A stretch of 64,000 nucleotides of DNA from an uncultured bacterium (lineage in GTDB: Bacteria > Patescibacteriota > Saccharimonadia > UBA4664 > SCTI01): the NCBI GenBank assembly GCA_963721685.1, contig CAVRJJ010000001.1, positions 4,555 through 68,554 of the forward strand. The letters are read 5' to 3'. This document shows, one piece after another, positions 2,894-62,051 of this stretch (position 1 is its first letter; every line of letters starts with the position of its first letter). The position numbers and the translations under genes are program-made. Below the pieces are notes generated by a model. That model was not told the DNA's origin and ran no database searches. It saw nothing but the letters and a program-made list of their open reading frames with translations.

Positions 2894-3358
2894 ATGAATA
2901 GAGGGTCAACCATCTTCTTAAAGGGTGCTGTTATTCTGATTGGGCTTGTAGTGCTGGGTTTGTGCGTTATCGCGTTGCCCGCGGGAATACGCTCCGATAA
3001 CACGGGTTATTATGCCCCTATCTTGTGGGGTATGTACGTACCGGCAATACCGTTTTTCTTTGCCCTCCACCAAGCGTTTAAGCTGCTAAGCTTTATCGAT
3101 AAAAACAATGCTTTTTCTCAAATTTCGGTAGATGCTTTGAAAAATATAAAATTCTGCGCGCTTACCATCAGCGCGTTGTTTGCGGCGGGAATGCCATACA
3201 TATTTTACGCGGCGGATAGAGATGACGCTCCGGGAGTTGCGTTGATAGGGTTTGTGATTATTGGTGCTTCCTTTGTAATCGCGACCTTCGCGGCCGTGCT
3301 GCAAAAGCTGTTGCAAAATGTTATAGACATAAAGTCGGAAAATGATTTAACGGTATGA
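2894..3358 (+). CDS. DUF2975-like membrane protein
   Basis: 154-aa 4-TM protein immediately upstream of a YozG-like XRE HTH regulator, the canonical DUF2975/XRE pair. Confidence 0.5.
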   Translation: MNRGSTIFLKGAVILIGLVVLGLCVIALPAGIRSDNTGYYAPILWGMYVPAIPFFFALHQAFKLLSFIDKNNAFSQISVDALKNIKFCALTISALFAAGMPYIFYAADRDDAPGVALIGFVIIGASFVIATFAAVLQKLLQNVIDIKSENDLTV

Positions 3359-8570: not shown

Positions 8571-9563
8571 ATGAAAAAGACTTTACCAAGCCAACAAGCC
8601 ATCGTTGTAAAAAATCTGCGTATGTCTTATGGCAAGCTTAAGGTGCTTGATGGGATTAATTTCACCGTAGAGCACGGTAAAATCCTCGCGTTATTGGGCC
8701 CAAATGGTGCCGGTAAAACTACTACCATTCGGATTCTGAGCACTCTGCTTCTTCCCGATGGCGGCGAAGCTAGCATTAATGGTTATGACGTTACAAAGCA
8801 TTCCGGTGACGTCCGCGCCAATATCGGCCTAACCGGCCAGTTCGCGGCCGTAGATGAATACCTTACCGGCGAAGAAAATATGCACATGATGGGGCGTTTG
8901 TACCGTTTAAGCATGAGTGACACAAAACGCCGTACCAACGATTTGATGAAGCAGTTTGATTTGGTTGAGGCGTCAAAACGTCCGGTTAAAACCTATTCCG
9001 GGGGTATGAAGCGCCGGATTGACTTAGCCATGAGCTTGATCGCAAATCCGCCAATTATCTTTCTGGACGAGCCAACCACCGGCCTGGACCCCCGCAGCCG
9101 TTTAACCATGTGGGACATTATTAAGCGACTAGCTAAAGACGGTACAACCATCCTCTTAACCACCCAGTACATGGATGAAGCCGACCATCTGGCCGATAGT
9201 ATTGTCGTAATCGATGAAGGCAAGGTTATTGCTAAAGGCACGGCAGACACCCTTAAGGCTCAGGTGGGGGCCGACCGTTTGGAGATTGTTATTGGTAAGA
9301 AAAGTAGCTTTGAAAAAGCCGTCGCGATTATTGGTAAAAAAGATGGCAAGTCACTTCAATCTGATGCCGAAAGGCGTGTGGTGAGCATTGCCAGCGGCGG
9401 CGGCGTTAAAAAGCTGAAAGAAGTTTTGCAGATGCTTGAAGATGCCCGCATCGAGGTGGAAAGCGTTTCGCTGCATCGCCCAACGCTGGATGATGTCTTC
9501 CTAACCTTAACGGGCCACGCGGCGATTCAAGAGCCGGCCGATAAAGCGAAAGGTAAGAAATAA
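8571..9563 (+). CDS. ABC transporter ATP-binding protein (DrrA-like)
   Basis: Walker A 'GPNGAGKTT', signature 'YSGGMKRR', Walker B '[12 protein letters not shown]'. Confidence 0.85.
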   Translation: MKKTLPSQQAIVVKNLRMSYGKLKVLDGINFTVEHGKILALLGPNGAGKTTTIRILSTLLLPDGGEASINGYDVTKHSGDVRANIGLTGQFAAVDEYLTGEENMHMMGRLYRLSMSDTKRRTNDLMKQFDLVEASKRPVKTYSGGMKRRIDLAMSLIANPPIIFLDEPTTGLDPRSRLTMWDIIKRLAKDGTTILLTTQYMDEADHLADSIVVIDEGKVIAKGTADTLKAQVGADRLEIVIGKKSSFEKAVAIIGKKDGKSLQSDAERRVVSIASGGGVKKLKEVLQMLEDARIEVESVSLHRPTLDDVFLTLTGHAAIQEPADKAKGKK

Positions 9564-11366: not shown

Positions 11367-12638
11367 CTACTCAAAATAGCGGATTGTTCCAAAGGGGATC
11401 TTGTCTTTCATCGGGTTTTTAGAAAGGGCTACCGAGGCTGGCTGGACTACCAATTCGCCATAGCGGTCGTTAATGGCATTAATGGCATCTTCCAAATGTT
11501 CGCGCTGGACCTGGGTATCGCCGAAGAGGGTAGGTTGGTGGTTGCCGCGGTAAGGCTCCAGACCGTAGCTGCTCATATCAAAGCCATTAACCACCAGCCC
11601 CTGCGGGCCGGAGAGAAACAGCTCCATAGCGCGCTGATGGAGCTGGTCACCCCGGCGGACGGCGGCGGGCCACATATTGCGTCCATGCCACCGCCGCGGA
11701 TGGTCGTAGTCGGCTTCGCTGCCGCGGGGCTGACCATAGCGGAGATAGAGGCTTAAGCCCCGGGCGGCCAAATTATTGCGTTTTAAGCGGCGGCTGATTT
11801 TTACCGCCGCCTTGTGAAAGAGTAGCGAGAGCTCTTCTACCTCATCGGTGCGGTGCTCCAAAACGTAGTTGCGCCCCACGCTGCGGATACCGTATTGACG
11901 CTCGGTTTCATACCCACGCAGCTTTAAGTACCAGTGATGGCCGTTGATGCCGCCAAACACCTGGCGAAACAGTACCCAGTAGGGTGCGCGGTAGAAATCC
12001 ACCGAGCTATAAATACCCGCTTGGTTTAGCCGCCGCTCCATCCGCCGTTTAATATAGGGCAGTTTAACCAGCGGCAGCATGCTAAATAAGGCTTCTTGCT
12101 CGCCGGGGTTGATGGTGAGCAAGCCGTCGGGCTTATGGAACTCGGCGGCTACCTTGGCTAGCCAGCGGTTTTGGGCAATGCCAATATTCACCGTCATGTA
12201 ATCGCCGACATCTTCCTTAATCCGCTGCTTAATCTCCCGAGCAATATCTTCCAGACTGCGTCCTTTTAAAATAGAGTCCATGCCCGCAAAATCAATAACG
12301 CCCTCATCGACACTTTTCATGTAGGCGGCGGGGGAGTAGCTGGCAAAAATAGCCTTCATTTTATGGTGCACGTGGGTGTACTTGTCGGGGTCGCTTTCCA
12401 GCATAGTGAAATCAGGAACAATCGCGCGAGCCTCGTGCCAGCGGGTGCCAATCCCAATGCCCGCTACTTTGGCTTCATGCGAGGCGGTGATGCAAATAGC
12501 GTAATCGTTTAAACGGTTAGTAACGCCTACCGGCCGGCCGCGTAACAAGGGATTGGCCTGCTGCTCAGTCATCGCAAAAGCGCTGTTGAGGTCGATGTGC
12601 ATAATTTTGGGGGCGACGGGGTTGGGTTCAATGGTCAT
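11367..12638 (-). CDS. dinB: Y-family DNA polymerase (DinB/Pol IV-like)
   Basis: 'MHIDLNSAFA' (=HVDMDCFFA), 'SVDEGVIDF' (=SLDEAYLDV catalytic DE), 'WLAKVAAEFHKPDGLLTI' (=FLAKIASDMNKPNGQFVI) align with E. coli DinB. Confidence 0.65.
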   Translation of the reverse strand: MTIEPNPVAPKIMHIDLNSAFAMTEQQANPLLRGRPVGVTNRLNDYAICITASHEAKVAGIGIGTRWHEARAIVPDFTMLESDPDKYTHVHHKMKAIFASYSPAAYMKSVDEGVIDFAGMDSILKGRSLEDIAREIKQRIKEDVGDYMTVNIGIAQNRWLAKVAAEFHKPDGLLTINPGEQEALFSMLPLVKLPYIKRRMERRLNQAGIYSSVDFYRAPYWVLFRQVFGGINGHHWYLKLRGYETERQYGIRSVGRNYVLEHRTDEVEELSLLFHKAAVKISRRLKRNNLAARGLSLYLRYGQPRGSEADYDHPRRWHGRNMWPAAVRRGDQLHQRAMELFLSGPQGLVVNGFDMSSYGLEPYRGNHQPTLFGDTQVQREHLEDAINAINDRYGELVVQPASVALSKNPMKDKIPFGTIRYFE

Positions 12639-12888
12639 AATAGACCTCGGCTAGGTTCCAAGTAAGCGTTTCAGTGTCAAGCTCAAGCTTAAACTTGGCC
12701 GTGTCGCACAATAATTCAAATATATGATAAAACTTCTTGCCGCGGCGGGCGGGATAATGGATGCCAAACTGAGTGACCTTATAGCGGTGCCCGCGCCAAT
12801 CTACCAGATACGGTAGCACCACGCTAGCCCGCTTGGTATGGTCAAACCCGGCTAGCACCCTAACTGGCTCATTAATCTCTTCGGTCAT
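12628..12888 (-). CDS. small hypothetical protein co-operonic with the Y-family polymerase
   Basis: about 87 aa from the Met that has a GGAG RBS 6 nt upstream; stop overlaps the dinB start by 11 nt; the ORF track's longer 134-aa form lacks an RBS. Confidence 0.4.
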   Translation of the reverse strand: MTEEINEPVRVLAGFDHTKRASVVLPYLVDWRGHRYKVTQFGIHYPARRGKKFYHIFELLCDTAKFKLELDTETLTWNLAEVYYDH

Positions 12889-12915
12889 GGCATCTCCTAG
12901 CTTCAATACTATACC

Positions 12916-12930
12916 GAACAAAGACCGAAC
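12916..12930 (-). promoter_or_regulatory. GTTC-N7-GTTC direct repeat (candidate SOS/LexA-type operator) in the dinB-operon promoter
   Basis: reads GAACaaagaccGAAC on + strand, i.e. GTTC-N7-GTTC on the coding strand, about 28 nt upstream of the 12888 start and just upstream of a TATAGT -10. Confidence 0.35.
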
Positions 12931-12962
12931 ACAAGCTATGAAGAGTACGCTATACTTATCGC

Positions 12963-13589
12963 ATGGAACTGCTTGACCTGATTTTGCATATTGACGAACA
13001 TCTGCGTAACGCTGTCGAGCAATATGGCACATTAAGTTACTTGGTGTTATTTGGGGTTATTTTTATTGAAACCGGGTTAGTAATTATGCCGTTCCTCCCC
13101 GGAGATTCGCTGCTATTCGCGGCGGGCGCTTTAGCCGGAGCCGGTTCACTGAGCATATGGGTTCTTTTGCCAGTGTTGTTAACAGCGGCGATTGTAGGCG
13201 ACACGGTTAATTATTGGATTGGCAGTAAGACCGGTGAAGTGGTTTTTACCCGGAAGAATTCACGTATTTTTAGGCCGGCTTATTTAAAGAAAACTCACGA
13301 CTTTTATGAAAAATATGGCGGGAAAACCATTATTATTGCCCGCTTTGTCCCGATTGTGCGGACATTCGCGCCGTTTGTGGCTGGGGTCGGCAGTATGCGC
13401 TATCGGGACTTTCTGGTTTATAATGTAATAGGAGCTTTCCTATGGGTTATTAGCTTAACACTGGCTGGCTTCTTTTTTGGGAAAATTCCTTTCATTCAGC
13501 GTAATTTTGAGCTGGTCGTATTGCTCATTATTGCGATTTCAATCTTACCGGGTGTGATTGAGTATATAAAGCATAAACGGACTAAATAA
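12963..13589 (+). CDS. DedA/SNARE-associated (VTT domain) membrane protein
   Basis: 'FLPGDSLLFAAGALAG...IIARFVPIVRTFAPFVAGV' DedA signature. Confidence 0.75.
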   Translation: MELLDLILHIDEHLRNAVEQYGTLSYLVLFGVIFIETGLVIMPFLPGDSLLFAAGALAGAGSLSIWVLLPVLLTAAIVGDTVNYWIGSKTGEVVFTRKNSRIFRPAYLKKTHDFYEKYGGKTIIIARFVPIVRTFAPFVAGVGSMRYRDFLVYNVIGAFLWVISLTLAGFFFGKIPFIQRNFELVVLLIIAISILPGVIEYIKHKRTK

Positions 13590-13595
13590 CTATAC

Positions 13596-16382
13596 ATGCA
13601 AGATATCCCGAAAATTCAAAAGTACATACGAGCGGCTAATTATTTATCGGTGGCCCAAATTTACTTGCAGGACAACTGCTTACTTGAGCGCCCTCTGCGT
13701 TCCGGCGATATTAAGCCTAAACTGTTTGGCCATTGGGGCACTTGTCCCGGCATTAACTTCTCTTACGCCCACGCTAATTATTTAATGAAAAAGCATGGGC
13801 AAGAAGCGGTCTATGTGCTAGGCCCCGGACATGGGATGCCGGCCCTACAGGCAAACCTATTCATAGAAGGGACATTGCAGAAATATTATTCCGAAGCCAC
13901 CCATGATAAAGCTGGCGTAACCTACATTAGTAAAATGTTTAGTTGGCCTTATGGCTTCTCCAGTCATTGCAGCCCCGAAACACCAGGATTGATTTTGGAG
14001 GGGGGTGAACTGGGCTACTCCTTGGCGTCGGCTTACGGCGCGGTGCTGGATAACCCCGGCCTGTTAGCGGTTTGCCTCATAGGTGACGGTGAGGCAGAAA
14101 CCGGTGCTATTGCCGCCGCCTGGCACACCAATAAGCTGATTGACCCCGCTACTAACGGCGCTGTTTTGCCAATTATGCACTTAAATGGACTTAAGATTTC
14201 CGGTCCGACTATTTTTGGCCGGATGAATGACAAAGATTTGCTTGATCTATTTAACGGTTACGGCTACGAGCCCTTTATTGTGGAAGGTAATGACGACGAG
14301 ATTGATGCCCGTATGATGGAAACCCTGGAAACCTGCTACGAGCGGATTACCGCTATCCAAAAGCAAGCCCGCGAAGGAGATAATGAATTTACACCCCGTT
14401 TCCCCATGATTATCCTTAAAAGTCCGAAAGGGTGGACTACCGTAAAAGAGTTGCGGGGACAGCCGATTGAAGGCACCATTCGGGCCCATCAGGTAGTTAT
14501 GCCGACGGTGGCGGGGGATGAAGAAGAGCTGCAGGTGCTTGAAACCTGGCTTAAATCCTACCGGTTTGATGAACTATTTGATAAGACGACTGGATTTATA
14601 AGCGACATACTCGAAGTAGTGCCGCCCGACGAGCTGCGGATGGGTGATAGCCCCCATATGTTTGGGGCGCGCTACCAGCCGCTCAAGCTGCCAAGTGCCG
14701 AAGATTTAGCCAAACCGCTTAACACTCCCGGCGTTTTGCAGTCTAACGCTATGCGTATGGCAGGGAGTTATCTAAAACATTTATTTGCCGACAATCAAGA
14801 ATCACGTAACCTGCGGCTGATGTCTCCTGATGAAACATACTCTAACCGGCTGGATGAGGTGTTCGAAGTTACATCGCGCGGCTTCGTTTGGCCTCATCAG
14901 CCAGGTGATAAAGATTTGGCACGGGATGGCCGGGTGATGGAAATGCTTTCGGAACACACCATGCATGGCTTGGCCCAAGGGTACGTCTTAACTGGGCGTC
15001 ACGCCGTTTTCACCACTTATGAAGCGTTTGCCCAAATCTTTTCCAGCATGGCCCACATGTACCAAAAATTCTTGAAATATGTACGGTTGATGCCGTGGCG
15101 CCAGGACATTCCCTCGATAAACTACCTTTTGACCTCCACGGCTTGGCGGCAAGAGCATAACGGCTACTCCCATCAAAACCCCAGCTTTGTTTCGGGAATG
15201 CTGGAAAAGCATAATGACTTCATAAAAGCTTATTTTCCGGTTGACGACAACAGCATGCTGGCGGTGATGGAAGAGGCCATGGGTTCAAAAAACCAAATGA
15301 ACATTATTACCGCGGGAAAAACGCCCGAGCCTCGGTGGCTAAGTTATGAGCAAGCCAAAAACGCGCTGGTAGATGGGTTAAGTGTCTGGGAGTTTGCCAG
15401 CGATAAAAACCCTCATATCGTAATGGTAGGAATTGGCGATTACGTTACTAAGGAGGTCCTGGCGGCTATCGAGCTCATTAAGCAGGACGCGCCGGAAATT
15501 CGCATCCGCTGCGTTAATATGGTGCGGTTGCAGGCTGCCTGTTCGTGCGATGACGCGTTCCATCCCCAAATACCTTCAGCCGAAAAATATTTTACGGTAG
15601 ATAAGCCCGTGATTGTAAACTTTCACGGCTATCCGGAAACGCTTAAAAGTATGCTTTTTAATGTAAAAAACCCCCAGCGTTTTTCCGTGCATGGTTATAT
15701 TGAGGAGGGCGGGACGACCACGGCGTTTGATATGCAGGTGAGAAATCGCACCAGCCGCTACCATTTAGCGCTTGAGGCAATTGAAACAGCGTTGAAAGAA
15801 GAGATTATCAATGAAGGCAAATATCAGCAGTTGACTGAAAAATATCAGAAAGCCCTAGATGACCACCACGCTTACATTACTACCATAGGCGCTGATCCGA
15901 TTGATCTTGAAAACTGGCAGTGGTCCGGCAAGCCGCCCTTGATTGTAAATACTTCCGCCCAAGAACGGGTGAAAACCCTCAAGGAAGCCCGCACCATTGC
16001 CTTTATTGGCTTATCGGATGACACCAGCCGTCATAGCCATAAAGTTGCCCGGTACTTTCAGGAAAAAGGATATCGGATTATTCCTATCAATCCCAATATT
16101 GATGAGGCATTAGGCGAGAAGGCCTATAAGAGCCTAATGGACGTGCCGGCTACCCTGCATATTGATATCGTTGATATTTTCCGTAAGCCAACTGAAGTAA
16201 TCCCCCATATGGAAGAAATTATGGAGCGGGGAGGTATTAGAACGGTCTGGCTGGCCGAAGGCGCCAACAGCCATGAGGCGGAAGTCTTTGCCGAGGATTA
16301 TGGTCTATATTTGGTGACCAACTACTGCATTATGGATGTTGATATAAGCGGCGAAAATGCTCCGGAGAAAGCTCACGTATGA
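13596..16382 (+). CDS. xfp: xylulose-5-P/fructose-6-P phosphoketolase with a C-terminal CoA-binding (YccU-like) domain
   Basis: 928 aa; N-terminal 'FGHWGTCPG...GPGHG' TPP-enzyme motifs of Xfp; the last ~140 aa 'IAFIGLSDDTSRHSHKVARYFQEKGYRIIPINP...' match YccU/CoA_binding_2. Confidence 0.8.
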   Translation: MQDIPKIQKYIRAANYLSVAQIYLQDNCLLERPLRSGDIKPKLFGHWGTCPGINFSYAHANYLMKKHGQEAVYVLGPGHGMPALQANLFIEGTLQKYYSEATHDKAGVTYISKMFSWPYGFSSHCSPETPGLILEGGELGYSLASAYGAVLDNPGLLAVCLIGDGEAETGAIAAAWHTNKLIDPATNGAVLPIMHLNGLKISGPTIFGRMNDKDLLDLFNGYGYEPFIVEGNDDEIDARMMETLETCYERITAIQKQAREGDNEFTPRFPMIILKSPKGWTTVKELRGQPIEGTIRAHQVVMPTVAGDEEELQVLETWLKSYRFDELFDKTTGFISDILEVVPPDELRMGDSPHMFGARYQPLKLPSAEDLAKPLNTPGVLQSNAMRMAGSYLKHLFADNQESRNLRLMSPDETYSNRLDEVFEVTSRGFVWPHQPGDKDLARDGRVMEMLSEHTMHGLAQGYVLTGRHAVFTTYEAFAQIFSSMAHMYQKFLKYVRLMPWRQDIPSINYLLTSTAWRQEHNGYSHQNPSFVSGMLEKHNDFIKAYFPVDDNSMLAVMEEAMGSKNQMNIITAGKTPEPRWLSYEQAKNALVDGLSVWEFASDKNPHIVMVGIGDYVTKEVLAAIELIKQDAPEIRIRCVNMVRLQAACSCDDAFHPQIPSAEKYFTVDKPVIVNFHGYPETLKSMLFNVKNPQRFSVHGYIEEGGTTTAFDMQVRNRTSRYHLALEAIETALKEEIINEGKYQQLTEKYQKALDDHHAYITTIGADPIDLENWQWSGKPPLIVNTSAQERVKTLKEARTIAFIGLSDDTSRHSHKVARYFQEKGYRIIPINPNIDEALGEKAYKSLMDVPATLHIDIVDIFRKPTEVIPHMEEIMERGGIRTVWLAEGANSHEAEVFAEDYGLYLVTNYCIMDVDISGENAPEKAHV

Positions 16383-33776: not shown

Positions 33777-35348
33777 ATGCAGCCATTAGCACTATCAGCT
33801 GAAGGACAGCGGCTGATCCAAGCTTTGACCATTGCCAACAAAGCCAACCTTACCCCGGAACATGATAAGGTCCACATTTCCGGTGTTGGCGGGCAGCTCT
33901 ACTTTGCCTATGAACAATTGCGGAACGCTGCTGAGTATGGTGAGCGTCATTTACTTGTAAGAAGGGCGATTGAGCGCTTTTTGTATCGTAACTGGCACCT
34001 GCAGAGCCGTCAACAATCGGTTGAGCTACCCATTGAACTGGTTTCTGAATTGACCCATGCCAGGTACTTGGAAAATGACAGTATTCCCCGCAGTTCCGTG
34101 CAGACTATTGACGCGATTATCCAGCGCTACACCAAGCTAGCCGAAGCCATACAGCATCATCACAAAATTTCCGGTGAAAAGCTTAAAGTCTGGATTTTTC
34201 AATCGGCTTCGGTTGAAATTGAGCATCAGCTCGTTCCGCATGCCCAAACTGACGCTTTTATTGATTTTGTTTATAATCATTATAAACAACACATTGACCC
34301 AAAGCTTTTTGACGGAGTAAATGAGCATACCAAAGAAGTGGCTCTTTACTGCGCGGTGCAACGGACATTATTTAAATCCGATATTGCCACCACCCGATAT
34401 TACGCGCTTACCGCCCGCCTTCATCAAAATGGCGCGGATACGTTGGCCTACTTCATCAACTTAAATCAGGCAGTCGACCGCCTTTATCAGGCACCCCTTA
34501 CAAATCGGGTAGGGCGTTTAATAAACCGCTCGGGGGGGTCAATGCGGATTCTGCGTGAGGTGGTTATGTCGACGAGCGCCCCTGAGCAGTTACTGTCCAA
34601 ACATGACGAACTGATGTCCCGGATTGCCCATGAAGCCGGGCAGCAGTATAAACTGACACGCAAGCGGCTAAATGAGGGGATTGTTAGGAGCGTAATATTT
34701 ATCTTTATAACCAAAGTTTTGCTTGGGCTATCATTGGAAGTTCCGTACGACCTTTTAGTGATTGGCGCAGTAGCCTGGACCCCGCTAATTATAAATACCC
34801 TGTTCCCGCCCCTCTACATGGCAACCATCGGCTGGGGAATTAGAACACCAGGAAGACGCAATACCGAAATTATTCAGTCTAAGCTTAGCCGTATTCTCTT
34901 CCATACCGACGATCCGCCCATACGATATCGCATACGCAAGCGCGTAACATCATCTGGCTTAAACTCTGCCTTTAACTTTGTTTACGCGGTCGCCTTCCTC
35001 CTTTCATTTGGCGTACTCATATATGCCCTGAGCCGGATTGGATTTAATGTAGTAAATGGCGCAATTTTCTTTGTCTTTCTTTCAATTGTAAGCTTCTTTG
35101 GCTTTCGCTTGCTTGAATCAGCCCGCGAGCTTGAAGTGGTTGACCAGCGCAAAAGCTTGTTAAGCGTGGCCCTAGACTTCTTTTACACACCATTCATCAG
35201 GGTGGGTCACTGGTTAACCGATAAATACTCGCGGTTGAACATCATTACCTTTGTGATGGATCTGGCGATTGAACTTCCCCTTAAGACGAGTCTGCGGGTT
35301 GTGCGCCAATGGGCTGGGTTTATTCGGGACAAACAGGAAGAGCTCTAA
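33777..35348 (+). CDS. hypothetical protein with C-terminal membrane domain
   Basis: 523 aa; soluble N-terminal half then 4-5 TM. Confidence 0.35.
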   Translation: MQPLALSAEGQRLIQALTIANKANLTPEHDKVHISGVGGQLYFAYEQLRNAAEYGERHLLVRRAIERFLYRNWHLQSRQQSVELPIELVSELTHARYLENDSIPRSSVQTIDAIIQRYTKLAEAIQHHHKISGEKLKVWIFQSASVEIEHQLVPHAQTDAFIDFVYNHYKQHIDPKLFDGVNEHTKEVALYCAVQRTLFKSDIATTRYYALTARLHQNGADTLAYFINLNQAVDRLYQAPLTNRVGRLINRSGGSMRILREVVMSTSAPEQLLSKHDELMSRIAHEAGQQYKLTRKRLNEGIVRSVIFIFITKVLLGLSLEVPYDLLVIGAVAWTPLIINTLFPPLYMATIGWGIRTPGRRNTEIIQSKLSRILFHTDDPPIRYRIRKRVTSSGLNSAFNFVYAVAFLLSFGVLIYALSRIGFNVVNGAIFFVFLSIVSFFGFRLLESARELEVVDQRKSLLSVALDFFYTPFIRVGHWLTDKYSRLNIITFVMDLAIELPLKTSLRVVRQWAGFIRDKQEEL

Positions 35349-53976: not shown

Positions 53977-55965
53977 ATGAGTTTATTTAAGCTAGCAACC
54001 ATGTACCAACCGGCTGGTGACCAACCCCAGGCCATTGCCAAGCTCACCGAAGGGCTTCAGCGCGGTGACAAAGAGCAGACCTTGCTGGGGGTCACCGGCT
54101 CCGGCAAAACCTACACAATGGCTAATATTATCCAGAACATGCAGCGCCCAACCTTAATATTAAGCCATAACAAAACATTGGCCGCCCAGCTGTACAGCGA
54201 GTTTCGGCAGTTTTTTCCCGACAATGCCGTTCAGTATTTCGTTAGCTACTACGATTACTACCAGCCGGAAGCCTATGTGGCCCGCAGCGATACCTACATC
54301 GAGAAAGACAGTTCCATCAATGAGGAAATTGACCGGCTGCGCCACGCCGCTACTTCAAGCCTACTAACCCGTAAGGACGTTTTAATTGTAGCCTCGGTGA
54401 GCTGCATTTATGGGTTGGGGAGTCCCGCCGATTACATTGAAATGACGGTCGATATCTCTCAGGGTGAAACCCGTAAGCGAGATAAGCTATTACGCTTGAT
54501 GACCGATATTCAGTACACTCGCAACGATATGAGTTTCGCCCGCGGTACCTTCCGGGTGCGCGGCGATACCGTCGAGGTGTTTCCGGTGGGGGAGGAGGTG
54601 GCCTACCGCATTGAGTTTTTTGGGGATGATGTTGAACGCATTCGCCAGGTTGATCCGTTAACCGGCGAAGTCTTAGGTGAGCGCGATAAGCTGCGGATTT
54701 TTCCGGCCAAGCACTTCGTAACGCCCCATGAAAAGCTGATGCACGCCGTTTCCCAAATTAACCAGGACCTGGCAATTCGGGTTGACGAGCTAAAAAAAGA
54801 CAATAAGCTTTTGGAGGCTCAGCGCCTAGAACAGCGTACCCGCTTTGATATTGAAATGCTGGAGCAAACCGGCTTCGTGGCGGGGATTGAAAATTATTCA
54901 CGCTATTTAACGAACCGCGAACCGGGTGAGCAACCGGCAACTTTGCTTGACTACTTCGCCGATGATTTCTTGTTGTTCGTCGATGAAAGCCACATTACTA
55001 TTCCCCAGGTCCGAGGCATGTTCAACGGGGACCGCGCGCGCAAGCAAAACCTGGTTGACTATGGGTTCCGATTGCCCAGCGCGCTTGATAACCGCCCGTT
55101 GCGCTTTGACGAGTTTGAGCGGCACATAAACCAAGCAATTTATGTTTCGGCTACCCCAACCGAATGGGAGGTTGGCCGTTCCAGCCAAGTAGCCGAACAA
55201 GTAATCCGTCCTACCGGATTAATTGATCCGGAGATTGAGGTGCGCCCAATTGAGCACCAGATTGACAACTTGCTAGAAGAAATCCGCCAAACGGTGGCCA
55301 AGGGCCAACGTGCACTGATAACGACCTTAACCAAACGTATGGCTGAAGATTTAACCGAGTACTTGCAGGACGCCGGCATCAAAGTCCAATACCTGCATTC
55401 CGAAGTAAATACCCTTGATCGAGTTGATATCCTGCATGATCTCCGTAGCGGCGTATTTGACGTGGTGGTGGGAATTAACCTGTTGCGTGAAGGCTTGGAC
55501 TTGCCGGAGGTATCATTGGTGGCAATTTTGGATGCCGATAAAGAAGGATTTTTACGATCGGAAACGTCATTAATCCAAACGATTGGACGGGCGGCCCGGC
55601 ATGTTGAAGGCCGCGTGATCATGTACGCCGATAAAATTACGCGCTCCATGAAGGTGGCGATTGATACCACCAATAAACGCCGTGAGGTCCAAGTCGCTTA
55701 CAATAAAGACCACGGCATCACGCCCGAAGGCATACAGAAAGCTTTGGCCGAACGCATGCAAGCGGAAGAGCAGGCGGAAACGGGTGACATTAAGCCGCTC
55801 AATATCCGGGAAATTCCTAAAGGTGAGCGTCAGCACCTCATAAAAGAGCTGACCAACCAAATGACCTTAGCCTCGGAAAACCTGCAGTTTGAAAAGGCCG
55901 CCTTATTACGGGATCAAATTGCTGAGTTAAAAGGAGCGACGAAGGCTAAGAAGGTAAAACGGTAG
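53977..55965 (+). CDS. uvrB: excinuclease ABC subunit B
   Basis: '[17 protein letters not shown]' and 'YVSATP' helicase motifs; C-terminal UVR domain '[15 protein letters not shown]'. Confidence 0.95.
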
Positions 55966-56046
55966 GTCTTTCTGCAAAGGCATAAATATTTTGACAAGCA
56001 TAAGCATTTTAAGTTATTCTTGGCTTAATTAAGAGAAAATTTAATT

Positions 56047-56778
56047 ATGAGCCCAGATTCAAACTCGGACAACCAACCCGGTAAAATATATCAACCATCC
56101 GGAGGTCATGATTTGCCACCAGCTGACGAGCCGAAATCTGACGCGCACGTTTTTTCTCCCCCGCCTGTTGTGCCACCATCACCGGTTGCTGTGCAGCCGG
56201 AAACTTCGAGCATGCCTCAGTCCAGTCAACCCATCGCGGTTGTTAATACCTACACGCCACGCGGGGTAGAGTACATGATAATGTTTTTCTCCCTATGGAT
56301 AGCCGCTAGTTCGCTAGGAACCTTGCTTCATTCCATCGTTGATAACGCGGCTCCCAGAGCGGAAGACAGCTATTTTAGTGCCGCTACCAGTGTGTTGCCG
56401 TTATCATCGATTGCGCTGGGAGTGGGGGTGATTGTCTTTGCGTTAATGTTTTTGCGCCTAAAGAAAGCCGAGCTCAACGAACCGTCTATCCGCCTTGATT
56501 CTTCGCGCCGCCGGGCTGTGTATTTAACCGTTTTGGTCACCTTTTTAATTGGTATGCAAAAAATTGTGACCTACATTTATGGGTTGTTTAATGGCGGCGG
56601 CTCAAGCGGGGGCATCGGAGACATTATTTTTGGCGGCTTCTTTGGCGGCGGCCAAGCAACCGAACCGGGGACCCCTCTGTATCTTTGGGATCTGGCGCAT
56701 CTTGCTATCACCCTGGGAATCGCCGGGCTTATCTTCTTTTACTACTGGCGCGATATGCACAAAGATGACAACCGGTAG
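56047..56778 (+). CDS. Pro-rich N-terminus plus Gly-rich membrane protein, hypothetical
   Basis: 243 aa, 4 TM; 'GGGSSGGIGDIIFGGFFGGG' loop. Confidence 0.35.
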   Translation: MSPDSNSDNQPGKIYQPSGGHDLPPADEPKSDAHVFSPPPVVPPSPVAVQPETSSMPQSSQPIAVVNTYTPRGVEYMIMFFSLWIAASSLGTLLHSIVDNAAPRAEDSYFSAATSVLPLSSIALGVGVIVFALMFLRLKKAELNEPSIRLDSSRRRAVYLTVLVTFLIGMQKIVTYIYGLFNGGGSSGGIGDIIFGGFFGGGQATEPGTPLYLWDLAHLAITLGIAGLIFFYYWRDMHKDDNR

Positions 56779-56787
56779 GATAATTTT

Positions 56788-57579
56788 ATGAAGAAATATT
56801 ATATAGCTATTGTCATTTTAGTAGCGGTTTCAGTTGCAACAATAGCTACTTACTACCTGACGTTTGCAAACAATGTCCGCGATGTCGTGAAAGAGCAGGA
56901 CATTAGCGCCCTTAGCCAAGCGGTTGATAATTACGTTGGAACCAATAAGCAGCTGCCGGATTCACTTAAGCAGATTAAGGTGGACAACGGTGTTAAGCAG
57001 CGGCTTGACCGCTACAGCTATAAAAAGGTAGGCGAGTTTACTTATAAGGGAGAATTTCAGTTGCGGTATGAATTGTGTACCACCTTTAAGAGCGAAACTA
57101 AGCAGACTGCCACACGGTATGAATCCGGATTAGAGTATGAAACATATCCAAACACCTATAACCATAAGGCCGGGCCTGTCTGTTATAAACTTTTCAGCTA
57201 CTTACCTCTTACGGGCGGCTTATTTGAGCCAACCACAAAGGCCATCGAGCCGTCCAAATCCACTGGTACAGTGGCGGGTCGCGATAGCCAGCGCATGAGT
57301 GATTTGCGCAGTCTGAAAACAGCCTCAGAACTCTATTTTAATGATAATGGCTTTTATCCCGCGGCTGCCACCTGGAAAAATGACCTTATCGGGGGTGACC
57401 TTCCTTACATAAAGAGTATACCGCTGGACCCAGCAACTGGTGCAACTTACAGTTATGTACCGTCGCCCGAGGGATGTAAAGGTAATTGCACAAGCTATGC
57501 TTTAACTGCTCAGCTGGAGAATAAAAAAGACTCACAAGCTGATAGCTCCGGACGCTATATCGTAAATAGCGCGAATTAG
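56788..57579 (+). CDS. membrane-anchored protein with C-terminal type-IV-pilin/pseudopilin-like segment
   Basis: N-terminal TM; '[27 protein letters not shown]' resembles the alpha1-C/globular-start motif of ComGC/GspG-like pilins. Confidence 0.3.
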
Positions 57580-57599
57580 CCAGTTCTGCCCAGTGAGGA

Positions 57600-57628
57600 T
57601 TGCCAATTAACCCAAGAATCGGTATAAT
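57600..57628 (+). promoter_or_regulatory. sigma70-like promoter TTGCCA-17-TATAAT upstream of uvrA
   Basis: hexamers read from sequence 30-55 nt upstream of the 57657 ATG. Confidence 0.45.
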
Positions 57629-57656
57629 CTGAACCTGTATTTGCGGGGAAAAACGT

Positions 57657-60524
57657 TTGGGCATGCAAGATAAGATTGTGGTTCGGGGTGCGCGGGAACA
57701 CAACTTAAAAAATATTGATGTAGAGATACCGCGCGACAAGCTGGTGGTAATTACCGGATTGAGTGGATCGGGAAAATCTTCGCTAGCCTTTGACACGATC
57801 TACGCCGAGGGCCAACGCCGGTATGTTGAGTCATTAAGTGCCTATGCCCGCCAGTTTCTTGGGCTTATGGAAAAACCTGATGTCGATCAGATTGACGGAC
57901 TAAGTCCCGCGATATCCATTGACCAGAAATCCAGTTCCCGCAACCCACGCTCCACCGTAGGGACAGTGACAGAAATTTATGATTATATGCGGCTCTTGTG
58001 GGCGAGGATTGGTGTACCGCATTGTCCAGTTTGCGGCCGAGAGGTATTGCGGCAGACTTCTGGCCAGATTGTTGACCAGATTTTAAAGCTGCCAGCCGAT
58101 ACCCGCGTAATGGTACTAGCGCCGGTGATTGATGATAAGAAAGGCGAGCACCGGGGGGTGGCGGTTGAGTTAAAAAAGGCCGGTTTTTCGCGTGTAAGGG
58201 TGGACGGCACTATTTATGATGTAGGGGAGTTTCCCGAGCTTGACAAGCAGCGCAAGCATACCGTGCAGGCAGTAGTTGACCGTCTGGTGGTAGAGGAGGA
58301 ATCACGGGGGCGGATCATTGATTCAGTAGAACAAGCCCTCAAGCTGGGCGAGGGGGTTGTCCAAATATTGGAGGCTGATTCCGACAGTACCCTCACCTTT
58401 AGCGAACATTATGCCTGTCCGGTTCACCTTGAAGTGAGTTTGCCGGAAGTAGCGCCGCGCAATTTTTCCTTTAACTCCCCCCATGGAGCCTGTCCGCGTT
58501 GTACCGGCTTGGGCACCCGGCTGGAGGTAGATCCGGAGCTGGTAATTCCCAACCGGCGCCTCTCCATTGCCGAAGGGGCAATCCGGCCGTGGTCGCGTAC
58601 TACCGCGCGGGTGACGTGGTATACCCGCATGCTTGAGGCAGTAGCCAAACAGTATGGCTTTGATATTAATGTCCCGGTTAGCCAAATGAAGCCCGACGAC
58701 TTACGAATTGTTTTGTATGGCGATGGGGGCCAAGGCCTGAGCATGCGCGGTCCTGGCGGCCGCACCTACCACACAACTTATGAAGGGGTGGTTCCTAATA
58801 TGGAACGGCGCTATCACGAAACGGACTCGGATTTTGTGCGCCGCGAGATTAGCAAGTACATGGCGGAGCACCAGTGTCCGGTTTGCGAGGGCAAGCGGCT
58901 TAAACCGGAAATTCTAGCGGTCACGATTGCAGGGAAATCAATTGTTGATATCACCATGGGGTCAATTGAAAATGTGGGTATATTTTTTGATTCATTAAAA
59001 CTTAATGAGCGCGATAGCCAGATCGCCTACCAAATTCTTAAGGAAATTCGGGCACGCTTATCATTCCTGCGAGACGTTGGCCTTAATTACCTCACATTGG
59101 ATCGCAGCGCCAACACCTTAGCCGGGGGTGAGGCTCAGCGTATCCGCCTAGCAACCCAGATTGGTTCAAGCTTAATGGGTGTACTTTATATCCTCGATGA
59201 GCCGTCCATCGGCTTGCACCAGCGGGATAATGACCGGCTGATTTTAACGTTGGAGCGGTTACGCAATCTGGGAAATACGGTAATCGTGGTTGAGCATGAC
59301 GAGGAAACCATGCGCGCGGCCGACTGGCTGATTGATATCGGCCCTCGTGCCGGCGAGCATGGCGGTGAAGTTATCGCGGCTGGCACCGCGGTAGAAGTGG
59401 CGGCCAACGCCGACAGCCTTACCGGCCAATATCTTGCCGGCACAAAGGAGCTGGCCATCCCGGCTAAACGACGCAAGGGAAATGGCAAGATTATCACTAT
59501 TAAAAACGCGCGGGAGCATAACTTAAAGGGAGTAGACGTGGATATTCCTTTAGGGCGGCTAGTCACCGTTACCGGCGTTTCAGGTTCCGGCAAATCCAGC
59601 TTAATAAATGATATTTTGGCTAAGAAGCTGGCACAAGTTTTTCATCGGGCGAGCGACGTGCCAGGCAAACATGATGATATTACCGGTTTGAATAATTTGG
59701 ATAAAGTTATTTCCGTTGACCAGTCGCCGATTGGCCGCACGCCACGCTCAAATCCCGCCACCTATACCGGCGTTTTTGGTGACATCCGGGAGCTGTTCGC
59801 GGCTACTCCCGAAGCAAAAATCCGCGGCTATAAAGCCGGTCGTTTTAGCTTTAATGTGAAAGGCGGGCGCTGTGAGGTGTGCAAAGGAGACGGGATTATT
59901 AAAATTGAAATGCACTTTTTGCCGGATGTATATGTGACTTGCGAGGAGTGTAAGGGCAAACGGTACAATCGTGAAGCCTTAGAGATTCACTACAAGGGTA
60001 AGACCATCTCGGACGTGCTGGGGATGACGGTTGAGGCCGCATCGGAATTTTTTGAAAACATTCCAAAAATTCGCCGGCGGATTGAAACACTTAATAGTGT
60101 CGGCTTGGGTTACATTCGCTTAGGTCAGCCGGCGACCACCTTAAGTGGGGGAGAGGCTCAACGTATTAAACTGGCAACCGAGCTAGCCCGTCGCAGCACA
60201 GGCCGGACACTGTATATTCTGGATGAGCCAACCACCGGACTACATTTTGAAGATGTCAAGCGCTTGCTCGAGGTCTTGAATGCATTGGTAGATGGCGGCA
60301 ATACGGTCTTAGTAATTGAGCACAACCTTGATGTCATTAAGAGCGCCGACTGGATTATTGACATGGGCCCTGAAGGCGGCGGCGGCGGCGGGCAAATGAT
60401 TGCTGAAGGCACGCCGGAGCAAATAGCTGTAGTGAAAGATTCCTACACCGGCCACTATGTTAAAAAGATATTAAACGTTAAACGGTCGCCAAGCCTATCC
60501 TCCAAAAAGAAAGTCCCGGCCTAG
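57657..60524 (+). CDS. uvrA: excinuclease ABC subunit A
   Basis: 955 aa; two ABC modules ('[10 protein letters not shown]' and '[10 protein letters not shown]'); zinc-finger Cys pairs. Confidence 0.95.
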
Positions 60525-60617
60525 CGGGGTGCCAGGATATTCTAAGCAACAGTCAGCACGAGCTAATCATCTACCCATTACTCTCTCGTGACTTGGCAAA
60601 ATGCTAAAATATAGCTT

Positions 60618-62051
60618 ATGGATTTATCTGAAAAACTTCAAGCCAAGCTAAAAGCACTGCCCAAACAGCCAGGGGTTTATTTCCATAAGGACGCTCAGGG
60701 CAAGATTATTTATATTGGCAAAGCCGCGGTTCTTAAAAACCGGGTGGGGTCGTATTTCCAGCAGAGTCGCCACCGCGACTTTAAGACCAAAATTTTAGTA
60801 GGTGAGATCGTTGACGTCGATTGGATTACGGTGGAGTCCGAAGTTGAAGCGCTGTTTTTGGAAAGCGAGTTCATAAAGCGCTATATGCCGAAATACAATA
60901 TCGATCTTCGTGACGATAAGCACTTCATTTATATTAAAATCCCGATGAAAGACGAATGGCCGGTTATTAGCTATGTGCGGCGACCGCTCGATGACGGTGC
61001 CGAATACTTTGGCCCGTTTACCTCTAGCGACGCGGTACGTAAAGCCATGCGCCAATTGCGCAAGGTCTTCCCTTACGTTACCCATTCAGTACATCCGCTT
61101 CCATCCAGAGCCTGCCTGCACTACCATATTGGTCTATGTCCGGGTCCTGAGTGTGGTGCGACAACAACTGCCGATTATAAACGTAGCTTGAGGCGGTTAA
61201 TGCTCTATATGCATGGCAAAAAAACGACGTTGACTAGTCAGATTGAAAAGGAGATGGTTCGCGCGGCCAAAAAACAGCTTTTTGAGTTGGCCGCGGACCG
61301 CCGCAACCAGTTGCGCAATCTGCAGGCTCTTGGTAAGCAAATGATCTTTAGCGATAAGGAATCATTTGACCTTTCCCGCGACCAAGCTCTGGTGGGGCTG
61401 GCTGACCGGCTTAATCTCAAAGGAATTCCTCGCCGGATAGAATGCTATGATATTTCGCACTTTCAGGGAACCGATAACGTGGCTAGTATGGTGGTGTTTA
61501 CCGACGGCGCCCCCAACAAGGAAGAGTACCGACGGTTTAAAATGCGTCTTGGAGGAAATGACGACTTCGCCCATATGGCTGAAGTTATCCGGCGGCGGTT
61601 TAGCGGGAAAAATTTAGAAAAATGGCTGAAGCCCGACCTCATTATTATTGATGGGGGCAAAGGACAGTTGAGCGCGGCCCTAAAAGTCTTAGACGAAGCC
61701 AAGATCATGATTCCCACTATTGGGCTAGCCAAGCGGGAAGAGGAAATTATTAGGCGGCTGGAGGTAGGCTATGAAAGTATCTTGTTGCCACACAGTTCGC
61801 ATGTACTGCAGTTGCTGCAACGGGTCAGGGATGAGGCCCATCGTTTTGCCGTAACCTACCATGGATTGCTTCGAGGTAAGCGCCAGACGGCGTCAATACT
61901 GGACGAGATCCCCGGCGTAGGGGCGGTAACGCGTAAAAAGCTTATTCGGGCTTTTGGGAGCGTAGCCGGGGTTAAGGCGGCCCCCATCGAGGACATTGCA
62001 GGAATTGTTGGCGAGGCACGCGCTAAAGTAATTGCCGAGTTGTTACGTTAA
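60618..62051 (+). CDS. uvrC: excinuclease ABC subunit C (short form)
   Basis: GIY-YIG 'PGVYFHKDAQGKIIYIGKAAVLKNRVGSYF'; C-terminal HhH 'IPGVGAVTRKKLIRAFGS'. Confidence 0.8.
   Translation: MDLSEKLQAKLKALPKQPGVYFHKDAQGKIIYIGKAAVLKNRVGSYFQQSRHRDFKTKILVGEIVDVDWITVESEVEALFLESEFIKRYMPKYNIDLRDDKHFIYIKIPMKDEWPVISYVRRPLDDGAEYFGPFTSSDAVRKAMRQLRKVFPYVTHSVHPLPSRACLHYHIGLCPGPECGATTTADYKRSLRRLMLYMHGKKTTLTSQIEKEMVRAAKKQLFELAADRRNQLRNLQALGKQMIFSDKESFDLSRDQALVGLADRLNLKGIPRRIECYDISHFQGTDNVASMVVFTDGAPNKEEYRRFKMRLGGNDDFAHMAEVIRRRFSGKNLEKWLKPDLIIIDGGKGQLSAALKVLDEAKIMIPTIGLAKREEEIIRRLEVGYESILLPHSSHVLQLLQRVRDEAHRFAVTYHGLLRGKRQTASILDEIPGVGAVTRKKLIRAFGSVAGVKAAPIEDIAGIVGEARAKVIAELLR

Follow-up and report, generated by a model that had tools for sequence, protein, structure and literature searches.

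Which protein controls a Y-family DNA polymerase operon of Saccharimonadia, and what is the small protein encoded directly in front of the polymerase? These questions are raised by a locus in a 64,000-nucleotide stretch of DNA from an uncultured bacterium of the class Saccharimonadia (TM7; Patescibacteriota; GenBank assembly GCA_963721685.1, contig CAVRJJ010000001.1, positions 4,555 to 68,554), which as a whole is called the window here. The operon consists of a gene for a protein of 86 amino acids (aa) and a polymerase gene, and its promoter carries a direct repeat. The locus was interpreted as a translesion synthesis operon, composed of an ImuB-C protein and an active Y-family polymerase, that is repressed through the direct-repeat operator, probably by LexA, and this reading was given a probability of roughly 0.6. 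An earlier note on this DNA, made from the sequence, is referred to as the original prediction.

Results

A direct repeat fills the promoter spacer of the operon

Both genes are on the minus strand, with the small open reading frame (ORF) upstream of the polymerase gene (Table 1). The promoter spacer of the operon is filled by a perfect direct repeat, TGTTCGGT-CTT-TGTTCGGT. The original prediction had reported a GTTC-N7-GTTC box between the -35 and -10 elements, and had likened it to the LexA site of Alphaproteobacteria and not to the Gram-positive Cheo box. This box is real and lies where it was placed, and no Cheo palindrome (GAAC-N4-GTTC) was seen on reading the window promoter, although the true repeat unit is longer than the GTTC core. 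The two hexamers proposed, TTGTGT and TATAGT, are also present but are only 15 nt apart, whereas TAGTAT (12906-12911) in place of TATAGT (12908-12913) gives the canonical spacer of 17 nt. The bare GTTC-N7-GTTC pattern was not enriched in the 64-kb window (2 found versus 1.44 expected), and its second copy (33912-33926) is inside an ORF. The extended pattern of 14 bases had one exact match in the window, with no others within 2 mismatches; the calculated number of exact chance matches in 64 kb is about 5e-4.

Homologous operons were fetched from genomes, metagenomes and assemblies, and 12 distinct Saccharimonadia-type operons were compared. The sequence TGTTCGG-N4-TGT(T/A)CGG was present in the promoter of all 12, across identities to the window of 53-93% for the small proteins and 59-89% for the polymerases. 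When the upstream regions were aligned, invariant positions occurred only within GTTCG.T...TGT.CG.T, and the flanks were unalignable. Conservation of the box exceeded that of the -35 and -10 hexamers across operons with proteins that are only 53-65% identical. The second copy of the repeat reads GTAC in two of the operons (loci L013 and L148). The TTG of the -35 element is kept in the homologous promoters (as TTGACA in L005, L008 and L009), and TATAAT or TAnnnT follows directly after the box.

In one Saccharimonadia subclade, the operon begins with an extra gene of family PF05635 (23S_rRNA_IVP), encoding a four-helix bundle protein of 139-141 aa. The box is found at the promoter of this inserted gene in all four loci concerned (L005, L008, L009 and L010), and thus tracks the operon promoter and not the small ORF. 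It fills the 17-nt spacer exactly in these operons (TTGACA-GTTCGGTTTTTGTTCGG-TATCTT). Conservation in 12 of 12 operons with unalignable flanks, together with this relocation with the promoter, argues that the box is an operator and not a chance repeat.

A weight matrix was used to scan the window and the fetched loci (224 kb). The operon promoter sites scored 26-32 bits, and the next best site scored 17.4 bits (L012, a related locus); except for L012, there were no sites of at least 12 bits elsewhere in this DNA. The box is the sole window site at that score, and the statement in the original prediction that no such box precedes uvrA, uvrB or uvrC in the window was borne out. The ORFs which that prediction had named uvrB, uvrA and uvrC are clustered at 53977-62051, where two further ORFs separate uvrB from uvrA. 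If the box is an SOS operator, nucleotide excision repair, as represented by these ORFs, would be outside the regulon here.

Scans of genomes and metagenomes with the small-protein alignment gave three loci only. A 1457-bp contig from a metagenome-assembled genome (MAG) of Candidatus Polarisedimenticolaceae (Acidobacteriota) encodes a small protein 92% identical to that of the window, together with the box (L003/P0396, HUC20828.1). This short contig is probably mis-binned. Its acidobacterial label is noteworthy because LexA of Acidobacterium capsulatum also uses a GTTC-N7-GTTC box, as indicated by the title of a reference cited in PMC7739468.

The small protein resembles standalone ImuB-C proteins

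In all loci of sufficient length to include the two genes, the small gene was directly 5' of the polymerase gene. In the window, the stop of the first and the start of the second overlap by 11 nt, and overlaps of 11-17 nt recur in homologous loci (L004, L007, L008, L013 and L141), which suggests translational coupling. The overlap agrees with the original prediction; the length given there, 87 aa, is corrected to 86 aa, with an N-terminus that is conserved in homologues. A mechanically listed ORF of 134 aa (12628-13032) was rejected as the gene, because every homologue begins with the M-[TF]-E that is found at position 12888, where AGGAG lies 5 nt upstream. A GGGG or GGAG run is kept at this Shine-Dalgarno position in the upstream alignment of homologues. 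The named homologues of both proteins were from Candidatus Saccharimonadia, Saccharimonadales and 'Patescibacteria group' MAGs.

An exhaustive HMMER search returned 373 representative clusters of relatives of about 86 aa. The only Pfam signal of the window protein was to DUF6504 (E=0.058, 14.1 bits, cutoff 24.2), a cutoff that is reached by its relative P0073 (25.4 bits); an E-value of 0.01 or lower was obtained for 6 of 69 family members. When the family profile was compared by hhalign with an 80-aa ImuB-C/DUF6504 protein of Deinococcus deserti, itself matching DUF6504 at 6.3e-7, an alignment of 61 columns was obtained (E=3.9e-5, probability 70%), spanning the W-x-G-x-x-Y motif and the C-terminal tryptophan. 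Residues W77 and W31 are at least 90% conserved in the 69 sequences; within the close family, R35 shows no variation and R32 almost none. The AlphaFold model of the protein is all-beta, with seven strands and a predicted local distance difference test score of 94. Foldseek found no fold match to this model in the PDB (best E=0.28), and there was no PDB sequence match. This is concordant with the literature, in which the ImuB-C beta-barrel has no PDB relative (Timinskas and Venclovas, PMC12926913), and in which ImuB-C was defined and described as a beta-rich domain with a conserved C-terminal tryptophan and basic residues, mostly standalone beside DinB-type polymerases (Aravind et al. 2013, PMC3765255). 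Distant membership of the standalone ImuB-C/DUF6504 proteins is thus supported for this divergent protein, with no single test being decisive.

The original prediction had likened the small protein to accessory factors of the UmuD/YolD type. Homology to these was rejected, as neither the protein nor its 69-member family had an S24 or YolD match in Pfam or NCBIfam, and the links found lead to DUF6504/ImuB-C instead. A functional analogy to UmuD or YolD as a small regulatory subunit is plausible; homology is not. As standalone ImuB-C proteins beside active Y-family polymerases have already been described (PMC3765255, PMC6511836), the probable ImuB-C character of the small protein places the gene pair in that published class.

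The polymerase is predicted to be active

In a MAFFT alignment, residues D15 and D111-E112 of the polymerase matched the catalytic residues D8 and D103-E104 of Escherichia coli DinB, so the retention of the catalytic D and DE that had been claimed for this protein holds. The ImuY protein of D. deserti, a known dead homologue, lacks the catalytic residues in the same alignment. The window polymerase is predicted from these residues to be catalytically active. Its scores were far below the NCBIfam cutoffs, both for the best DinB model (148.7 bits versus 256) and for the UmuC model (72.4 bits versus 431), and it is therefore placed in a separate divergent clade of the Y family, being neither a canonical DinB nor a canonical UmuC. 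More than 120 homologues were found at 59-100% identity, several of them named Candidatus Saccharimonadia or Saccharimonadales, and an identical copy is encoded on a contig of 405 kb. A tblastn search of plasmids with the polymerase, aimed at an ImuB, gave UmuC and DinB types only among the matches listed.

The polymerase extends past the end of DinB at its C-terminus, and this extension (AINAINDRYGELVV...DKIPFGTIRYF) is conserved in the Saccharimonadia and Microgenomates homologues. A segment within it resembles, as judged by eye, the RecA N-terminus ALGQIEKQFGKGSIM, and is a putative RecA-binding segment; polymerases paired with ImuB-C have been reported to carry RecA N-terminus-like (RecA-NT-like) motifs (PMC6511836). 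The conserved tail that follows may be where the small subunit or the clamp docks.

Orthologous operons in Microgenomates carry lexA and a palindromic box

The small-protein family is also present in Microgenomates, in genomes with Gottesmanbacteria and Woesebacteria names. The operon order there is S24 protein (lexA), small protein, polymerase. The S24 protein of a Gottesmanbacteria locus (L141) scored 124.1 bits against the TIGR00498 lexA model (cutoff 110.95), and a second S24 protein scored 107.6. The Microgenomates promoters contain palindromic boxes of the Cheo type, GAAC-N4-GTTC, in the forms GAACGATCGTTC, GAACGTTCGTTC and GAACAATTGTTC. The half-site GT(T/A)CG(G) is common to the Saccharimonadia and Microgenomates boxes, and only its orientation and spacing differ. 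The T/A wobble was observed in both classes, as GTAC in L013 and L148 and in the palindrome of L144.

A divergent SRAP gene (YedK-like, PF02586) shares the Cheo-box intergenic region in two Microgenomates loci (L143:8644-9309 and L145:595-1254). This arrangement agrees with the association of SRAP, ImuB-C and DinB that Aravind et al. (2013) described. In L141, a 54-aa ORF (9237-9401) separates lexA from the Cheo-box promoter. The possibility that P0222 and L145 represent two operons on one contig was rejected, as their contigs, although both 29,379 bp long, are different.

Searches for LexA and for RNA elements

No LexA was found in the window by a scan for the GDSM motif, and recA was absent from the window and from the fetched loci. 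LexA proteins of E. coli, Bacillus subtilis and Patescibacteria were used as phmmer queries, covering 224 kb and then 292 kb including the Microgenomates loci, and gave no match in Saccharimonadia DNA. A scan of viral contigs with an alignment of Patescibacteria LexA returned nothing. There were no matches to RNA families in an Rfam search of the window.

Table 1. Features of the polymerase operon of the window and of homologous loci. Locations without a locus name are window positions.
Feature	Location	Strand	Remarks
Y-family DNA polymerase, 423 aa	11367-12638	-	Pfam IMS 5e-30 and IMS_C 1.4e-5
Conserved C-terminal tail DKIPFGTIRYFE	11370-11405	-	D[KR]I.FG..[RK] kept across both Patescibacteria classes
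RecA-NT-like segment HLEDAINAINDRYGELVVQPAS	11433-11498	-	residues 381-402, within the C-terminal extension
Small protein, 86 aa, all-beta, probable divergent standalone ImuB-C (DUF6504) accessory subunit	12628-12888	-	
Overlap of small-ORF stop and polymerase start, ATGACCATTGA	12628-12638	-	11 nt, read from the sequence
Shine-Dalgarno AGGAG	12894-12898	-	5 nt 5' of the small-ORF ATG, read from the sequence
-10 region TATAGTAT	12906-12913	-	read from the sequence
Direct-repeat operator TGTTCGGT-CTT-TGTTCGGT	12913-12931	-	perfect repeat, 11-bp period; 8-nt copies at 12924-12931 and 12913-12920, separated by N3
GTTC-N7-GTTC box GTTCGGTCTTTGTTC	12916-12930	-	part of the longer repeat
-35-like hexamer TTGTGT	12929-12934	-	shares the first two bases of the box, read from the sequence
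PF05635 gene	L005:9567-9992		2-12 nt before the small ORF
PF05635 gene	L008:725-1144		2-12 nt before the small ORF
PF05635 gene	L009:389-814		2-12 nt before the small ORF
PF05635 gene	L010:1278-1703		2-12 nt before the small ORF
Cheo-type box TTGACAggtGAACGATCGTTCacTATAAT	L141		in the -35/-10 spacer
Cheo-type box ccGAACGTTCGTTCgg	L143		
Cheo-type box TTGACAaagtGAACAATTGTTCacTAAAAT	L145-147		in the -35/-10 spacer, SRAP gene divergent
Cheo-type box cGTACGAATGTACg	L144		

Neighbouring genes and box-like repeats in phage contigs

The 74-bp intergenic region upstream of the operon (12889-12962) is shared with a divergent gene for a DedA/VTT-domain protein (12963-13589, plus strand), and the direct-repeat box may overlap the promoter of this gene too. 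The DedA/VTT-domain neighbour is not kept in the more distant homologous loci. The following ORF of 928 aa (13596-16382) looks, judged from its translation, like a phosphoketolase with a C-terminal extension.

A scan of viral contigs for the box gave more than 120 matches, nearly all of which were unrelated arrays of 11-bp tandem repeats. In these, three to nine TGTTCGGTnnn units are present in many unrelated phage contigs with a GC content of 0.25 to 0.71 (including L018, L025, L028, L047, L054, L108 and L112); the arrays have an iteron-like look and are unrelated to the operon. One phage contig (L057, IMGVR_UViG_3300033463_000773; GC 0.49, with portal- and capsid-like genes) has box copies at 33-51 and 3222-3240, each with an extended -10 element (TATGcTATAAT) 6 nt after it. 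One of the two copies, TGTTCGGTCTTTGTTCGGT, is identical to the window box. This contig may be from a Saccharimonadia phage that is wired to the same regulator as the window operon.

Discussion

Proposed control of the operon

The Saccharimonadia box is most likely a LexA operator, because lexA is part of the orthologous operon in Microgenomates, where the corresponding promoter slot holds a palindrome of this half-site. The direct repeat appears to derive, by re-orientation, from the palindromic LexA box of the Cheo type that is kept in Microgenomates. Binding of LexA itself is inferred from sequence, since no Saccharimonadia lexA could be retrieved. In the mechanism that we propose, a repressor on the operator in the promoter spacer would keep the operon off, with a LexA dimer occupying two GTTCGG half-sites 11 bp apart, between the -35 and -10 elements, and so blocking RNA polymerase. 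Upon DNA damage, activated RecA would promote self-cleavage of LexA, and the operon would be transcribed. Owing to the overlapping stop and start, the 86-aa beta-barrel subunit and the polymerase would be translated in a coupled manner, and the two proteins would probably assemble into a lesion-bypass complex, possibly together with RecA through the RecA-NT-like C-terminal segment. Damage induction and the formation of the complex between polymerase and ImuB-C are presumed.

Several results weigh against this interpretation. No lexA was present within 10 kb of the operon in the nine neighbourhoods with substantial flanks, and the phmmer searches detected none in the Saccharimonadia DNA. The box was found only at this operon in the scanned DNA, with no site at a lexA or recA gene and no visible regulon. 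A generic sigma-70 consensus scan did not call the window promoter, the score of the window small protein is under the Pfam DUF6504 cutoff, and the hhalign probability for the link to ImuB-C is only 70%. Tandem repeats of 7-8 bp with an 11-bp period are, moreover, also typical of winged-helix response regulators.

The main alternative is a repressor other than LexA, such as a lineage-specific regulator that took over after the departure or loss of lexA, a protein of the winged-helix type that binds tandem repeats, or a non-canonical S24 helix-turn-helix repressor of the Bacteroidetes type. The Microgenomates operon includes lexA, whereas no Saccharimonadia operon has this gene, either within it or in the flanking 10 kb; the half-sites are oriented and spaced otherwise than in the Microgenomates LexA box; and neither a second box site nor a LexA was detected in the Saccharimonadia DNA scanned. 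Regulators of the SOS response other than LexA are documented elsewhere (PMC8565304, PMC9578287). We nevertheless consider control by another repressor to be somewhat unlikely: the sister class has the half-site GT(T/A)CG in its LexA boxes too, the change from a palindrome to a GTTC direct repeat is an established trajectory of LexA in Alphaproteobacteria, and no regulator gene was consistently linked to the operon, the neighbours of MarR, XRE, PadR, PucR and receiver-only types varying by locus. It is a rather doubtful proposition that lexA left an ancestral lexA-imuB-C-polY operon, which Microgenomates would have kept intact, and that a different repressor then took over, recognising TGTTCGG in tandem copies that stem from the former half-site of LexA. 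If true, the uncoupling from LexA would represent the replacement of a regulator on a recycled operator in a reduced genome of the candidate phyla radiation (CPR).

The nature of the enzyme and that of the repeat could each be read differently. The small protein might be an accessory factor of the UmuD/YolD type, so that the pair would form an enzyme like DNA polymerase V (Pol V). The polymerase has the N-terminus D-x-N-S, as UmuC also does, and its partner is translationally coupled to it. The RecA-NT-like segment followed by a conserved tail is likewise an arrangement of UmuC and YqjW (PMC6511836). An enzyme of the Pol V kind is very improbable in view of the small protein, which has no Peptidase_S24 or YolD match in Pfam and no fold match in the PDB although UmuD' is in that database, and whose sequence links lead to DUF6504/ImuB-C, a barrel without similarity to the SH3-like one that UmuD' and YqjX have (PMC12926913); the polymerase, at 72 bits, is also far from the UmuC cutoff of 431. 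That the repeat binds no protein, and either belongs to the promoter or leader as a conserved element or arose by chance, would suit the chance-level frequency of bare GTTC-N7-GTTC in the window and the 11-bp tandem TGTTCGGT arrays of many unrelated phage contigs. It is scarcely credible for a box that outconserves the -35 and -10 hexamers between operons with proteins only 53-65% identical and relocates with the promoter, that has a LexA-type palindrome as its counterpart in the same slot in the sister class, and that lies in a window with no Rfam match anywhere.

Comparison with known systems

The gene pair belongs to a known and published class, and only the repeat layout of the operator is unusual. 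Operons of imuB-C and polY often include lexA, and the Geobacter operon lexA-imuB-C-polY is damage-induced (Timinskas and Venclovas 2019, PMC6511836). The operon of Geobacter sulfurreducens ('GeoPolY-like') shares with the window a small beta protein directly upstream of, and co-transcribed with, an intact Y-family polymerase; in both, DnaE2 and ImuA are not involved and there is a link, putative in the case of the window, to the SOS response. The Microgenomates orthologues have exactly the Geobacter order of lexA, small protein and polymerase, whereas the window operon differs by the absence of lexA, by a small protein below the DUF6504 cutoff and by a direct-repeat operator. The lineages are also different, as PMC6511836 lists delta-proteobacteria, Deferribacteres, Planctomycetes and Clostridia, and the window is from Patescibacteria.

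LexA binds GTTC-N7-GTTC in Alphaproteobacteria (PMC8565304, PMC9578287). The box of Caulobacter, Rhodobacter and Rhizobium has in common with that of the window the GTTC direct repeat, the T-rich spacer of 7 nt, the 11-bp period and a position over the promoter of a damage-tolerance operon, but the window has a longer unit, TGTTCGG(T), with a second copy that tolerates GTAC, and LexA is here a presumed binder. The Gram-positive Cheo box (CGAAC-N4-GTTCG) shares its GTTCG half-site with the window box, and at the orthologous operons of L141 and L145 it likewise occupies the -35/-10 spacer. Its half-sites are inverted and 8 bp apart from centre to centre, whereas those of the window are directly repeated at a spacing of 11 bp. 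The relation between the Cheo-type box of Microgenomates and the window-type box is the same as that between the Gram-positive and the alphaproteobacterial LexA boxes (PMC8565304, PMC9578287).

In Deinococcus (D. deserti), an 80-aa standalone ImuB-C protein ('DUF6504 family protein') is similarly found beside a Y-family protein, under LexA/RecA control. There, however, ImuY lacks the catalytic residues and synthesis is performed by DnaE2, and the ImuB-C gene follows that of the polymerase. In Pol V (UmuD'2C) and YqjW-YolD, as in the window operon, a small regulatory subunit accompanies a Y-family polymerase with a conserved tail and a RecA-NT-like motif, the latter putative in the window, as is the SOS control that Pol V and YqjW-YolD are under, but the small subunit of the window is not homologous to theirs, with no match to S24 or YolD or to the SH3-like fold.

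For the repeated evolution of direct-repeat motifs by LexA, PMC7739468 cites, among other sources, a 2017 study of the SOS response in Patescibacteria. That study may already describe the direct-repeat motif of Saccharimonadia, and the contrast between palindrome and direct repeat is probably at least partly published. With the operon class published as well, the practical gain from the present analysis is modest.

Significance for Patescibacteria

Within one superphylum, the promoter slot of one orthologous operon is occupied by a LexA-type palindrome in Microgenomates and by directly repeated copies of its half-site in Saccharimonadia. This natural comparison makes it testable how a dimeric repressor changes the orientation and spacing of its half-sites, a question which is also posed by the Alphaproteobacteria. 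The little-studied type of mutasome composed of ImuB-C and an active PolY is extended by these operons to the bacteria of the CPR. These episymbionts have tiny genomes and yet would have kept an inducible error-prone polymerase, which bears on how variation arises in them.

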